Shown piece by piece: positions 18,038 to 22,293 of a stretch of DNA of 25,538 nt. The stretch comes from Candidatus Dojkabacteria bacterium UBA2222 (GTDB lineage Bacteria; Patescibacteriota; Dojkabacteria; SC72). The stretch lies in assembly GCA_002328465.1 (NCBI GenBank), contig DCUE01000065.1:143-25680 (forward strand), given 5' to 3'. Position numbers and translations under genes: made by a program. Within the stretch, counting starts at the first letter, position 1. Each line of letters starts with the position of its first letter. Below the pieces are notes generated by a model, which saw nothing but the letters and a program-made list of their open reading frames with translations, had not been told where the DNA came from and searched no databases.

Positions 18038-20278
18038 ATGAAAAACGACATTTCTAAGACATTTGAAGAAAAGGAAAAGGAAATATTCACCCTCTGGGAG
18101 GAATCTGGATTCTTTAACCCAGATACAATGAAGGCACTTTTGAAAGAGGATGCGAAGGAACCTTTTACAATATCATTACCTCCACCAAATGCTAATGGGA
18201 ATTTACATCTTGGACATATGTGTGGTTACTCTTTTCATGATGCAATAGGGAGATATATGAGGATGACAGGACACCCTACTCTACTTCTTCCTGGAAAAGA
18301 TCATGCAGGTATTCAAACGGAAACAGCCTTTACAAAAGAGTTAGAGAAAAAAGGTAAGAACAAATGGGATATGGGAAGAGAGGAATTCTATAAACAGTGT
18401 TACGAATTCTGTATGAAGAATGCCTCCAATGCAAGAGATCAGGAGAAAAACATTGGATTAAGTGCCGATTTTAGCAGAGAGTTTTTTACATTAGATCCTA
18501 GACTAACAGAAACGGTATATGAAACCTTTGAGATGATGTTTAGAGAGGGGATGGTTTACAGGGACAAGAGGATTGTAAATATATGTCCTTACTGCAAGAC
18601 TGCATTAGCAGATATAGATACGGAGCATGAAGAGAGGAGAGGTATTTTTGCATATATTAAATATCCACTTGTTGGGGAAAAAGATAAATACATTATGGTT
18701 GCTACTACTAGACCTGAGACTATGTTGGGGGATACTGCTGTAGCAGTTAACCCAAAGGATGATAGATACAAAGAGTATATAGGGAAGAAAGTGATTCTCC
18801 CGATACAAAATAAAGAGATTCCAGTAATTGCGGATGAATCTGTAGACATAGAAGTAGGCACGGGAGCTCTAAAGGTTACTCCAGCCCACTCTCCTGTTGA
18901 TTTCGAATTAGGTATTAAATACAACCTTGAAGTTGTTAATGTAATAGACGAAGAAGGCAAAATGACTGGTAATATCCCAGAGAAGTACAAAGGAATGGAT
19001 ACACTTCAATGTTCTAAGGAATTGTGTCAAGACTTAGATAGTTTGGGTCTTTTAGAAGAGATTAAGAATATTAAACATGAGGTAGCAATTTGTGAAAGAT
19101 GCAAAACCCCTGTTGAACCTGTTATTTCAAATCAGTGGTATATAGATGTTAGTAATTTAGCAAAAGAAGCCCTAAATGCTCTCCATTCAGGAGAGGTAAG
19201 AGTTATTCCCGAGGGCCAACAGAAAGCTTTAGAGTTCTTCTTTGAAAATATTAGACCTTGGTGTATTTCGAGACAACTGTGGTGGGGGCAGAGGATACCC
19301 GTTTGGTATAGCGGGGGAAAGAAACTGTACGATTGGTTACAAGAGAACAAAGGGAAAACGGTTAAAGATTTCGAAAAAGAATTTAACCTAAAAGTTATTG
19401 GAGATGGAAGCATTTATATTGGTGAGAACATCCCAAAAGAGGGTGCAGGATGGGAACCCGAAACAGATATGTTTGATACGTGGTTTAGTTCAGGTCAATG
19501 GCCATACTCTACTCTCGGAGGACCAAGTGGAGAGGATTTCAAAAAATACTATCCTACTCAAATGATGATTCATGCAAGAGATATTCTTTTCTGGTGGTCA
19601 GCAAGGATGTTAATGTTGGGAATATATAGGACGAAAGAGGTTCCATTTAAAACAATCTTTCTTACAGGAATGATTCTTGCCCCTGATGGTTCTAAGATGT
19701 CAAAAAGTAAGGGTAATGGAATTGAACCTCAAGAAGTTTTTGAGAAATATGGGGCAGATGCTCTTAGACTTTGGTATTACTCCGATGCTCTTCCAGGATC
19801 AAACGCTCCAATCAGAGAAGAGAAAATAAAGGGTAATAGAAATTTTGTAAATAAGATATGGAACGCTAGTAGATTCATCCTTATGAATATCGATGATGCG
19901 GAGGTTGATGCCGTTAGGGAAGAGGTTGTAGATATGGAAACCGAAAGGATAAAAGAAACAGAGGTACATATCCAAAAGGTTTCGAAATATCTTAGTAAGT
20001 ATCAATTCAATCTCGGAGCAGAGGAAATTAGGGAATTTTTCTGGCATAAGTTATGCGATGTATGGATAGAAGAAATCAAATCAGAGATACAGGATAAAGA
20101 AGTGGGCTCTAAGGAGAGGGTCTCAAGACTTACAGAGCTTTTGTATATTCTTAAGCAGAATTTAAAAATAATGCACCCCTTCATTCCGTTTATTACAGAA
20201 TCCGTATGGCAGGAATTAGTAAAGCTAAAACTGACAGAGGGGATTTTGATGGGTGAACAGATTCAAATATCAGAGTAA
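18038..20278 (+). CDS. valS: Valyl-tRNA synthetase lacking the C-terminal coiled-coil arm
   Basis: PPPNANGNLHLGH (HIGH), PGKDHAGIQT, ATTRPETMLGDTAVAVNP, GTGALKVTPAH, WCISRQLWWG, DTWFSS and KMSKSKGN. Ends shortly after HPFIPFITE. Confidence 0.97.
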   Translation: MKNDISKTFEEKEKEIFTLWEESGFFNPDTMKALLKEDAKEPFTISLPPPNANGNLHLGHMCGYSFHDAIGRYMRMTGHPTLLLPGKDHAGIQTETAFTKELEKKGKNKWDMGREEFYKQCYEFCMKNASNARDQEKNIGLSADFSREFFTLDPRLTETVYETFEMMFREGMVYRDKRIVNICPYCKTALADIDTEHEERRGIFAYIKYPLVGEKDKYIMVATTRPETMLGDTAVAVNPKDDRYKEYIGKKVILPIQNKEIPVIADESVDIEVGTGALKVTPAHSPVDFELGIKYNLEVVNVIDEEGKMTGNIPEKYKGMDTLQCSKELCQDLDSLGLLEEIKNIKHEVAICERCKTPVEPVISNQWYIDVSNLAKEALNALHSGEVRVIPEGQQKALEFFFENIRPWCISRQLWWGQRIPVWYSGGKKLYDWLQENKGKTVKDFEKEFNLKVIGDGSIYIGENIPKEGAGWEPETDMFDTWFSSGQWPYSTLGGPSGEDFKKYYPTQMMIHARDILFWWSARMLMLGIYRTKEVPFKTIFLTGMILAPDGSKMSKSKGNGIEPQEVFEKYGADALRLWYYSDALPGSNAPIREEKIKGNRNFVNKIWNASRFILMNIDDAEVDAVREEVVDMETERIKETEVHIQKVSKYLSKYQFNLGAEEIREFFWHKLCDVWIEEIKSEIQDKEVGSKERVSRLTELLYILKQNLKIMHPFIPFITESVWQELVKLKLTEGILMGEQIQISE

Positions 20279-20335
20279 AAAGAAAAGAGATGGAGGGAAT
20301 CTAAGACGTAAGTCAAAAAACGGATTCCCTCCATC
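20277..20335 (-). terminator. Intrinsic terminator-like hairpin for minus-strand transcription (metG/small ORF)
   Basis: Perfect 13-bp stem GATGGAGGGAATC (20289-20301) / GATTCCCTCCATC (20323-20335), inner GAC-GTAA-GTC, then minus-strand TCTTTTCTTTTT. No U-tract on the plus strand. Confidence 0.7.
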
Positions 20336-20348
20336 ATTGCAATAGCTG

Positions 20349-20498
20349 TTAGCCATTGCGCCTAAAAACTGGATCACCTCCTTTCTTTTTCCCAACGGAT
20401 GCCGTAGGTTTCTGTTTTTTCTTCTCTTCCTCCTTTGAGGCTTGAGAAGTGAGCTTCCCCGTTGGGGGAGTGAAAGAGAACGCGATGTCTTTAGCCAT
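20349..20498 (-). CDS. Unannotated 49-aa basic small protein MAKDIAFSFTPPTGKLTSQASKEEEKKKQKPTASVGKKKGGDPVFRRNG
   Basis: Hand-translated open frame ATG 20498 to TAA 20349. Perfect SD AGGAGGTGA (20509-20501) just upstream, terminator downstream; below the ORF-track length cutoff. Could instead be, or overlap, a structured RNA. Confidence 0.5.
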   Translation of the reverse strand: MAKDIAFSFTPPTGKLTSQASKEEEKKKQKPTASVGKKKGGDPVFRRNG

Positions 20499-20553
20499 GT
20501 TCACCTCCTGGTGTCTTTATACCAGAAAAGAAAATCTTTGGAAATACTTGATG

Positions 20554-22293
20554 TTATTGACTTAATATTTTCTCAAAAAGAATCGTTGGGGGATTAAGAT
20601 TTTTCCCACCTTCTAATTTATTGAAAGACCACTTGTCTTCAAATCTTGTTACTATTCCACTTGTTTCTAGCTCTTGGTTGGCATCATATTCTTCATCTAT
20701 ATTTAACATGTCAGAGAGTTTCTTAGAGCTATTTGGGGTAAAAGGTTTTAATAATATTCTTAATGCATTGACTAGCTGGATGGAGTTATACATCGTGTTG
20801 TTACAATCATCTATATTTTCTTTGAAGGAAACCCAGGGAGCTTTATCATTAAAATATTTGTTTGAATAGTCTCCGAACTTTAATAGGGATTCGCTTGCCT
20901 TAACGAATTCACATTTTTCGATATGATGACCAATCTCTTTGAAAGCTTTATTTATTGAATCTTCAACCTCTTTCTCTAATTCTCCCTTAGGTATTTTGTT
21001 CTCAAATTTACTACTTATGAAAGTAAGGGTCCTATTTATGAAGTTTCCAAGGTTTGCAACTAATTCGTTGTTATTACAATCTATAAAATCTTTCCATTCA
21101 AATTCTCTATCATGATTCTCAGGTGCATATCTTAAGAAGAAGAACCTAATTAAATCAGGACTATATTTTTCAAGTAGAGAATCAGCGTCCATGCCAGTTC
21201 CATCTCCCTTTGACATTTTCTTCCCTTTGTAAAGAAGCATTTTGTTTGAAGGTACGTCGTATGGGAGATTTAATTTCTCTCTTTTACTTTCTCCTGGGAA
21301 TTTGTATTTTTCCCATAGGGTATCATCCTCGTATTTTTCACTGTATGCTAATATCTCTGCTGGCCATATTATTGTATGGAAGGGTGTGTTTCCTCCTGCG
21401 ATAAAGTAGTAATGTTTACAAGTGGAATCTTTCCAGAACTCTTCCCATTCACTTGGTTTTTCAATATTTTGTGCCCATTCTATTGAAGCAGAAAGGTATC
21501 CAACAACTGCTTCTATCCATACATATATTACTTTCTCTTCCCAACCCTTTACTGGCACGGGAATTCCGAACTTTAAATCTCTAGTTACCTCCCTAGCTTC
21601 CAAGCCCTCCTTGAGCCAACCTTTTGAGAATTCTCTTACCCATTTTCTCCAATCACTGCTACTTTCTTCAACCCATTTAGCAATCTGGGGTTCTAATTTC
21701 TTCAAATCAAGATAGAAGTGCTCAGTTTCTTTCAAAACAGGTTTCGTATCAGAGAGTGTACTATATGGGTCAATTAAATCTTCTGGTTTTAGGAATTTAC
21801 CACATTCTGGACACTCATCCCCTCTTGCATTTGTTGCTCCACATTCTGGACACGTACCTCTTACATATCGATCGGGAAGGAATTTACTTACTTTCTCATC
21901 ATAGTACTGCTTTGACTTCTGTGGATACAGATATCCTCTTTCTTTCAGTACTAAGAAAATATTTTGAACAACATTTTTATGATTCTCTGTAGTTGTTGTA
22001 GTATAGTTTTCATAGAGTAAGGAGAGCTTTTTAAAAGTTTCAACTATCTCTTTATGAGATTTTGTTACTAACTCTTCAGGAGAGATATTTAACTCTTCAG
22101 CCTTAAAGAGTATGGGAGTTCCATGACTATCACTTCCAGAGACCATTAATACCCTGTTCCCCTTCTGTCTATGATATCTTGCAAAAACATCGCATGCTAT
22201 ATTTTGACCAGCCAGATGTCCTAGGTGAATCTTCCCACTTGCATATGGCCACGATACACCGATAAAGATTTTATTTGATTGAAATTTGTCCAT
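20554..22293 (-). CDS. metG: Methionyl-tRNA synthetase (monomeric type, no C-terminal Trbp/EMAP domain)
   Basis: WPYASGKIHLGH (HIGH), VSGSDSHGTPI, Zn knuckle CPECG..GDECPECG, YVWIEA, KMSKG and NELVANLGNFINR. Confidence 0.97.
   Translation of the reverse strand: MDKFQSNKIFIGVSWPYASGKIHLGHLAGQNIACDVFARYHRQKGNRVLMVSGSDSHGTPILFKAEELNISPEELVTKSHKEIVETFKKLSLLYENYTTTTTENHKNVVQNIFLVLKERGYLYPQKSKQYYDEKVSKFLPDRYVRGTCPECGATNARGDECPECGKFLKPEDLIDPYSTLSDTKPVLKETEHFYLDLKKLEPQIAKWVEESSSDWRKWVREFSKGWLKEGLEAREVTRDLKFGIPVPVKGWEEKVIYVWIEAVVGYLSASIEWAQNIEKPSEWEEFWKDSTCKHYYFIAGGNTPFHTIIWPAEILAYSEKYEDDTLWEKYKFPGESKREKLNLPYDVPSNKMLLYKGKKMSKGDGTGMDADSLLEKYSPDLIRFFFLRYAPENHDREFEWKDFIDCNNNELVANLGNFINRTLTFISSKFENKIPKGELEKEVEDSINKAFKEIGHHIEKCEFVKASESLLKFGDYSNKYFNDKAPWVSFKENIDDCNNTMYNSIQLVNALRILLKPFTPNSSKKLSDMLNIDEEYDANQELETSGIVTRFEDKWSFNKLEGGKNLNPPTILFEKILSQ

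Follow-up and report, generated by a model that had tools for sequence, protein, structure and literature searches.

A conserved Shine-Dalgarno-like element near the 3' end of a small-gene mRNA in Dojkabacteria

An 18-nt sequence that matches the canonical 3' end of bacterial 16S rRNA, located between two aminoacyl-tRNA synthetase genes of a Dojkabacteria genome, is, as judged by comparison with related genomes, this genome's copy of a 14-nt RNA element that is conserved across Dojkabacteria. The window analyzed here, i.e., the whole stretch of DNA, comprises 25,538 nt; all coordinates are positions in this window, and the RNA carrying the element is encoded on the minus strand. The element (designated SD2; 20372 to 20385, minus strand; RNA 5'-GAAAGGAGGUGAUC-3') is a conserved orphan Shine-Dalgarno (SD)-like sequence contained in the 18-mer at 20369 to 20386, and the pattern of its conservation indicates that it is very probably a functional cis element, acting at the nucleotide level, of the minus-strand mRNA of a small gene. 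While SD sequences are understood as signals for start sites, SD2 may well serve as an anchor at the 3' end of this mRNA for the 16S tail of 30S subunits or of ribosomes after termination, although this reading of the sequences is a tentative one. Dojkabacteria are ultra-small bacteria of the CPR, and a lineage with very few SDs thus keeps, in at least 8 genera, a site at the 3' end of a tiny mRNA that matches the 16S tail over its full length.

The first-pass annotation had described an 18-nt copy of the 16S 3' tail at this site, and the exact match was recovered; CTGGATCACCTCCTTTCT is found without mismatch at 20369 to 20386 of the plus strand, and no other match exists in the window even when up to 3 mismatches are allowed, with an expectation of 0.01 in shuffled sequence. 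The 13-nt core of this sequence, GGATCACCTCCTT, is present as a single copy in the assembly (736,233 bp in 78 contigs). The Rfam bacterial SSU consensus ends in gcgGcugGAUcACCUCCUUu, with which the 18-mer also agrees, as expected for the canonical-type 16S 3' end that it had been taken to be. An Rfam scan of the window yielded three tRNAs only, with no SSU match at 20230 to 20570, so that the flanks of the 18-mer are not rRNA, which is also what had been concluded from the letters alone.

A 16S gene was not found in the assembly of the window genome. In seven relatives of the order, which include a member of its genus and a member of its family, the 16S 3' end reads GCGGCUGAAUUACCUCCUUUC, and four relatives that have both the element and a 16S gene (G009, G015, G083 and G084) carry the tail CTGAATTACCTCCTTTC. 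The lineage tail, which reads CUGAAUUACCUCCUUUC, differs from the 18-mer at 2 of 18 positions, with CUGAAUUACCUCC in the relatives where the window has CUGGAUCACCUCC; in the alignment to the Rfam SSU model, it differs from the consensus by G to A and C to U. It is therefore the canonical tail, and not that of the lineage, to which the 18-mer corresponds, and both the flanks and the difference from the lineage tail argue against a 16S gene or gene fragment at this position. Across the order, the 16S tail GAAUUACCUCC replaces the near-universal GGAUCACCUCC (L013, L014, L193 and L194); the substituted bases belong to GAUCA, the stretch recognized by the KH domain of Era in 30S maturation.

The 18-mer is placed in the 275-nt gap that separates the convergent genes valS (18038 to 20278, plus strand; a valyl-tRNA synthetase-type class I enzyme, Pfam PF00133, E 4e-113) and metG (20554 to 22293, minus strand; methionyl-tRNA synthetase, Pfam PF09334, E 4e-137), with metG as the upstream neighbor of the small gene; valS is the convergent neighbor in nearly all homologous loci as well. 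A Lys-rich ORF of 49 aa (20352 to 20498, minus strand; core GKLTS.SKEEEKKKQKP) is encoded in this gap, with its ATG at 20498 and its stop codon, TAA, at 20349 to 20351. The 18-mer does lie within this ORF, as had been claimed, and reads AAG AAA GGA GGT GAT CCA (KKGGDP) on the minus strand, six codons before the TAA. The true ribosome-binding site of the ORF, SD1 (AGGAGGUGA; 20501 to 20509, minus strand), is found 2 nt before the ATG, which is 7 nt from its GGAGG core, and an extended -10 promoter-like box (TGGTATAAA; 20516 to 20524, minus strand), read from sequence as a putative promoter, lies upstream of it. Sequence comparison showed that a TGATATAA(T/C) box occupies the same place in relatives; every homologue has GGAGGUG 3 to 7 nt before the ATG and a TGnTATAA box just 5' of it. 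The element is followed on the same strand by two hairpins, P1 (20339 to 20359), with the stop codon of the ORF in its loop, and P2 (20289 to 20335), with 13-bp arms at 20289 to 20301 and 20323 to 20335 that are 100% complementary, and then by a U/C-rich tail, UCUUUUCUUUUU (20277 to 20288, minus strand). From these features we infer a small-gene mRNA of approximately 230 nt that is probably strongly expressed. Both direct repeats that had been noticed in this region are present. The two copies of TCACCTCCT represent the true SD (20501 to 20509) and the conserved element, and SD1 and SD2 have a common extended consensus, AGGAGGUGRWYC, with up to 11 nt matching; the repeat of TTAGCCAT, an 8-mer pair formed by ATG GCT AA at the start of the ORF and AAT GGC TAA at its stop, is at about the level expected by chance in 450 nt.

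Comparative sequence evidence indicates that the 49-aa ORF between metG and valS is a real gene. Homologues were identified in 6 of 24 family genomes by a translated search with the single protein and in 21 of 99 family genomes by a profile search, and the profile search found none in 20 genomes from four other families of the order. Among 1.84 billion cluster representatives, 12 clusters were matched, nearly all with lengths of 39 to 52 aa. The protein has a conserved core, GKL(S/T)S..SKEEEKKKQKP, between variable N- and C-termini. In the codons of this core, differences between genomes number 546 at third positions versus 190 and 237 at the other two, and this third-position excess represents a coding signature. 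Searches with the small protein or its alignment identified neither a Pfam family nor a PDB relative, a search of the ESM Atlas with the protein gave no usable match, a word-based search retrieved a single close relative only, and a metagenome scan with a profile of the N-terminal part only gave 597 pattern matches, 0 of which were confirmed. An assignment of the small protein to bS21 was dropped because a canonical rpsU is found on another contig. These data point to an unstudied, Lys-rich protein of 40 to 50 aa that is specific to Dojkabacteria and probably abundant.

For comparison of the element itself, 25 loci were aligned on it, one from a metagenome contig and the others from 24 genomes that belong to at least 8 genera; 23 of these loci are non-redundant. 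The element follows the consensus G-R-R-A-G-G-R-G-G-U-G-A-U-C with hardly any variation, while neither flank can be aligned, and over AGGnGGUGAUC the 23 non-redundant loci have an information content of 1.9 bits per position versus 0.33 in the upstream and 0.36 in the downstream flank. With regard to translation, three classes of loci can be distinguished. In class I (9 loci), the ORF reads GGA-GGT-GAT through the element, as in the window; in class II (5 loci), the ORF runs AGG AGG TGA and the stop codon is supplied by the element; in class III (11 loci), a TGA, TAG or TAA is found 0 to 3 nt upstream and the element is untranslated. Classes II and III comprise 15 non-redundant loci, and even in these, identity in the element is 0.99 versus 0.46 to 0.50 in the flanks. 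Conservation at the nucleotide level in homologous loci, on which the case for the element had been made to depend beforehand, thus holds even where the element is outside the ORF or out of frame with it. An elongation pause inside the ORF, which had been considered initially, does not qualify as a general mechanism, as translation does not proceed past the element in 16 of the 25 loci.

The synonymous positions that had been named for inspection gave a consistent picture, with third positions of GGA, GGT and GAT that barely change while synonymous sites in the protein core vary freely. The window alone could still be accounted for by coding constraint and codon bias, i.e., by a KKGGDP peptide that happens to be spelled in the commonest codons. 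With the codon usage of this genome, the probability of GGA GGT GAT given Gly-Gly-Asp is 0.135, and internal GGAGG is not avoided, with 630 sense-strand copies within genes of the genome, so that codon bias could give the spelling seen in the window and it is the conservation across frames that represents the evidence. Since these nucleotides are retained in two other reading frames as well as in untranslated RNA, at 16 of 25 loci that are not read in the frame of the window, coding constraint and chance are ruled out and an explanation of this kind is extremely improbable.

The distribution of the element was also assessed independently of the gene. A search keyed on the P2 hairpin only recovered an independent metagenome locus with the element directly after a TAA, as well as a G055-like lineage in which the gene and P2 are present without the element. 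With a covariance model of the element and P2, 34 of 100 family genomes (that of the window among them) and 11 of 21 genera were found to contain the module. A genome-wide search for a DNA pattern of SD2 and a P2 arm was swamped by chance matches. Two close relatives, G002 (L184) and G074 (L182), have lost both the gene and the element and kept P2 as the terminator of metG and valS; in G089 (L183) and the G055-like lineage (L181/L160), the gene is kept and the element is decayed or absent. Many relatives thus have neither the gene nor the element, and some have the gene on its own, which indicates that the element is dispensable.

The extent of the conserved sequence coincides with the 16S tail. 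SD2 is complementary to the 16S 3' tail as an SD would be, forming 13 continuous Watson-Crick or G.U pairs with the tail of the relatives, AUUACCUCCUUUC, in nearly all loci and in a fixed register, and 15 to 17 pairs with the bacterial consensus tail. Variation in the element is largely of a kind that preserves this pairing. A or G opposite U is found at the three purines before GGAGG and, as a central A-to-G change, in three genomes, and one genome has a G-to-A change opposite the lineage-specific U; these changes are wobble-compatible on the minus strand only and would be mismatches on the other strand. Moreover, conservation begins opposite the last nucleotide of the tail and ends opposite the first. 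The complementarity to the 16S tail and the nucleotide-level conservation thus support the earlier designation of the element as an SD-like site on the minus-strand mRNA. By comparison, the last conserved base, a C in 23 of 23 loci, faces an A in the lineage tail and is mismatched, pairing with the canonical G only, so that pairing with the organism's own tail does not account for all of the conservation. A search of the genome for a partner in trans found 4 copies of GGATCACC, and the three outside the element are without obvious RNA-gene context.

The plus strand had been proposed to give rise to an anti-SD mimic; related readings would be a decoy that captures 16S 3'-end-binding proteins and a remnant of a 16S gene. 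The identity of 18 nt to the canonical tail would fit such a role, the hairpins precede the site on that strand, and fold energies do not clearly favor either strand (summed minimum free energies (MFE) of -598 kcal/mol for sense versus -618 kcal/mol for antisense). However, besides the flanks and the lineage tail described above, no promoter-like site for the plus strand was found in the gap, the site lies beyond both hairpins after valS, and the A-to-G variants would give CCCCC, which would mismatch an SD. The rule by which stop codons are placed makes sense on the minus strand only. As all the conserved relations, i.e., the positions of ORF stops and the wobble-type A/G variation, belong to the minus strand, the anti-SD mimic is not supported and a plus-strand function of any of these kinds is considered very improbable.

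The element always lies close to the end of translation or directly at it, 7 to 14 nt before the first hairpin (P1, or the terminator in loci without P1); a stop codon is found inside SD2 or 0 to 3 nt upstream of it in 16 of 25 loci. In genera g29 and g10, the stretch from the stop of the main ORF to the element is bridged by a mini-ORF of 8 to 14 codons that has its own SD (GAAAGGAG) and start codon and whose stop is again located within the element or immediately 5' of it. Judging from the arrangement of the ORFs, translation is apparently guided toward the element. The sequences of the mini-ORFs, found in L186 to L189 (G050, G049, G114 and G048), are unrelated between genera. In G024 (L185; minus strand, approximately 1000 to 1790), two promoter-led units of tiny basic ORFs are located away from metG and valS. 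There, the element ends an unrelated ORF of 20 codons (AGG AGG TGA) in a different genomic context; a 47-aa KQKPT-containing ORF is also followed by a 41-aa Arg/Lys-rich ORF that ends in AGG AGG TAG. SD-like sites at the 3' end were looked for after other small genes with strong expression (HU and rpsU) and none were found. Regulation of the ArfA/BrfA non-stop type was considered because of the stop codon in the P1 loop, and was rejected since translation at most loci stops before any hairpin.

No ATG, GTG or TTG that opens a conserved ORF was found approximately 4 to 12 nt downstream of SD2 in the window or its homologues. The nearest ATG that recurs is located at least 13 nt from SD2 or past P1, and the frame it opens is not conserved. 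No cistron was found to start downstream in overlap with SD2 or close to it; what comes next are hairpins and a terminator. The 5' arm of P2 always opens with ATG (GTG in one genome), even where these three bases are unpaired (G053), as seen for the hairpin at 20289 to 20335 of the window and in columns 88 to 101 of alignment A2. SD2 could therefore be conceived as one half of a split re-initiation site that serves this AUG or GUG, with P1 shortening the spacing and a short peptide being translated through the terminator. Such an arrangement would be consistent with the presence of the ATG (GTG in G052) before GGAGAG in 17 of 17 P2-bearing loci, with spacings of 16 and 13 nt between GGAGG and ATG in the variants that lack P1, and with P1 ending 1 to 3 nt before the P2 ATG. 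The ATG is within the P2 stem in most loci, though, and the frames opened by it are between 7 and more than 30 codons long, with MER(V/A) as their only conserved part and no conserved peptide beyond the stem, while g29, g10 and g11 keep SD2 with a different terminator that has no such ATG. A split re-initiation site thus appears improbable.

Since SD-like sequences can stimulate recoding, SD2 might alternatively promote a programmed frameshift or stop codon read-through that adds a GGDP-type tail to the protein. The GGA-GGT-GAT frame is indeed open for a few codons past the stop in several loci, in frame after TAG or TAA in G086 and G088 and in the +1 frame in G052 and G082. The relation of the frames differs between loci, however, the extensions of 3 to 16 codons are unrelated in sequence, and among the relatives neither a conserved slippery heptamer nor a CUU-UGA-type site was found at a fixed distance as in prfB or dnaX. 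Taken together, recoding is a very unlikely function for the element.

Further analysis of the RNA downstream of SD2 was carried out by single-sequence and alignment folding. In MFE folds of 16 loci, the sequence of P1 varies by lineage while its pairing is kept; P1 is absent in G088 and L161. The alignment fold of P2 has 10 pairs, 6 of which show compensatory changes. The perfect 13-bp stem of P2 is followed by UCUUUUCUUUUU, and P2 is probably an intrinsic terminator; with its loop of 21 nt, it was not detected by a simple terminator scanner, which allows loops of up to 8. P2 probably also acts in both directions, as the outer G.U pairs of P2 favor the sense strand and one inner pair favors the antisense strand, and such opposing strand signals fit a bidirectional terminator. 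In G054 (L036), P1 and P2 are missing and CCTTTCT is found at the junction, while G053 (L035) has two copies of CCTTTCT; the hairpin loss in G054 looks like a repeat-mediated deletion that left the element beside the pyrimidine tail.

These structures raise the question of whether SD2 could be a structured-RNA or protein-binding motif with only a secondary likeness to an SD, in which GUGAUC is displayed for a partner or forms the base of a composite terminator. Three possible partners for the GGAG of the element were identified, i.e., CUCU 2 to 4 nt downstream, the pyrimidine tail after P2 and the 3' arm of P2. CUCU-like pyrimidines recur 2 to 4 nt after the element and vary in a pairing-compatible manner (CUCC, CCUC, UUCU and CCUUUC), MFE folds often pair GGAGG with the pyrimidine tail, and the U/C tail and the purine run of SD2 are 88% complementary over 16 nt, with both mismatches being G.U on the minus strand. 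The predicted unpaired probability of SD2 is 0.13 to 0.57, an intermediate range from which little can be concluded. A structural role would also fit the position of the element beside CCUUUCU in G054 and the mismatch of the invariant C with the lineage's 16S tail. Intrinsic terminators with AAGGAGG/CCTCCTT stems are common in the genome (for example, at C21:4184, C68:9336, C2(-):739 and C27(-):3415), so that runs resembling an SD or an anti-SD are frequent at the ends of genes, which makes a purely structural reading of GGAGG thinkable. However, none of the partner pairings is strong or convincingly covarying; the candidate stems have 4 to 6 bp with many G.U pairs and are thermodynamically marginal, and the partners vary while the element is invariant. 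An antiterminator switch between SD2 and the 3' arm of P2 was examined and rejected, as this pairing amounts to -7 to -13 kcal/mol versus -19 to -27 kcal/mol for P2 and beats shuffled sequences only in some loci (1 to 87 of 200 shuffles). As the boundaries of conservation coincide with the 16S tail, an exclusively structural or protein-binding motif is considered rather unlikely.

Taking into consideration that the conserved span matches the single-stranded 16S tail base for base, SD:anti-SD pairing without initiation represents the most likely mechanism for SD2. The physiological setting is suggested by the use of SDs in this genome, where, with crude gene calls, GGAGG is present within 22 nt upstream of only 5 of 589 long ORFs and the 5-mers enriched upstream are TATAA, ATAAT and TAAAT. 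Their resemblance to -10 boxes suggests that many mRNAs may be leaderless or have very short leaders. Strong SDs are found mainly before small genes, i.e., rpsU, two HU genes, a 45-aa membrane ORF and the small gene described here, and before one longer ORF of 472 aa; rpsU has the SD AAAGGAGGU after a TGTGATATAAT box, and strong-SD sites are found, for example, at C75:15150-15225, C29:2040-2063 and C34:10015-10038. Of the 3 copies of AGGAGGTGA in the genome, 2 are within the transcript of the small gene.

In the proposed mechanism, a duplex of approximately 13 bp just upstream of the terminator hairpins would retain either a 30S subunit or a ribosome that has completed termination at the element or next to it. 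With most other mRNAs lacking SDs, the 16S tail would be left unoccupied and could engage in such pairing. The pay-off could be the retention and re-use of ribosomes on a tiny mRNA, protection of its 3' end, or both; alternatively, the site could titrate free 16S tails in an SD-poor cell. We infer both the ribosome binding and its pay-off from the sequences, and the absence of a usable start codon after SD2 makes the benefit of binding a conjecture. In a more far-reaching version, the small RNA would be abundant and act as a sponge that titrates free 16S tails and thereby sets the translation of rpsU, HU and the small gene itself, or would act on the ribosomes of a host bacterium, on which the organism is presumed to live as an episymbiont. 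The site fits the canonical tail over 15 to 17 nt and the producer's tail over 13 nt with a terminal mismatch, and action on host ribosomes would explain an invariant C that pairs with the canonical tail only; nevertheless, a sponge is regarded as very unlikely. If SD2 does hold ribosomes, as in the anchoring mechanism favored here, this would represent a new use of the anti-SD tail and a concrete reason for SD-poor bacteria to keep it. As a cis element, SD2 would be simple to test by experiment.

To our knowledge, conserved SD-like sequences that do not initiate translation are known only as 5' stabilizers, stimulators of frameshifting and debated pause sites. SD2 belongs to the same sequence class as the canonical SD (in its extended form AAAGGAGGUGAUC, the full complement of a Bacillus-type tail) and shares its complementarity to 16S rRNA, but differs from it by having no start codon 4 to 12 nt downstream and no downstream cistron, and by its position at the 3' end, at or after the stop codon. 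A parallel is offered by STAB-SD, reportedly described by Agaisse and Lereclus in 1996 as a 5' mRNA stabilizer of Bacillus thuringiensis cryIIIA. STAB-SD is located near the 5' end, where it binds the 16S tail without initiating and blocks 5'-to-3' decay. SD2 is similar in that it is an SD-like cis site proposed to bind the 16S tail without initiation, whereas it is found not in the 5' UTR but at the 3' terminus, beside the stop codon.

At termination-reinitiation junctions in operons, the SD of the next gene is located inside the end of the previous gene (Huber et al. 2019, PMC6728339). SD2 likewise has a stop codon within a few nt of a strong SD, including a coupled mini-ORF in g29 and g10, but at SD2 the chain ends; nothing is re-initiated and a terminator comes next. 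In the SD-poor Bacteroidia, the extended SD of rpsU is a start-site signal in an autoregulatory loop (McNutt et al. 2023, PMC9976891; Jha et al. 2020, PMC7797042). The window genome similarly ignores SDs to a large extent and has very strong ones on a few small genes, including rpsU. SD2, by contrast, starts nothing, and occlusion of the anti-SD is not known for CPR ribosomes.

The only Rfam family that matched the element was RF01867 (CC2171 sRNA of Alphaproteobacteria), with 22.2 bits and an E value of 0.007, compared to a gathering threshold of 75, so that the locus is not a member of this family. The same GAAAGGAGGUGAUCCAG stands at the 5' end of the RF01867 consensus, whose 3' end is formed by a terminator, but the 100-nt middle of the model is missing here and the phylum is unrelated, the match consisting of the SD-like run and a hairpin. 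At positions 9 to 25 of the RF01867 consensus, the full-tail complement GAAAGGAGGUGAUCCAG is followed by a GUG 7 nt after GGAGG, and RF01867 may itself be the mRNA of a small protein and not a non-coding RNA.
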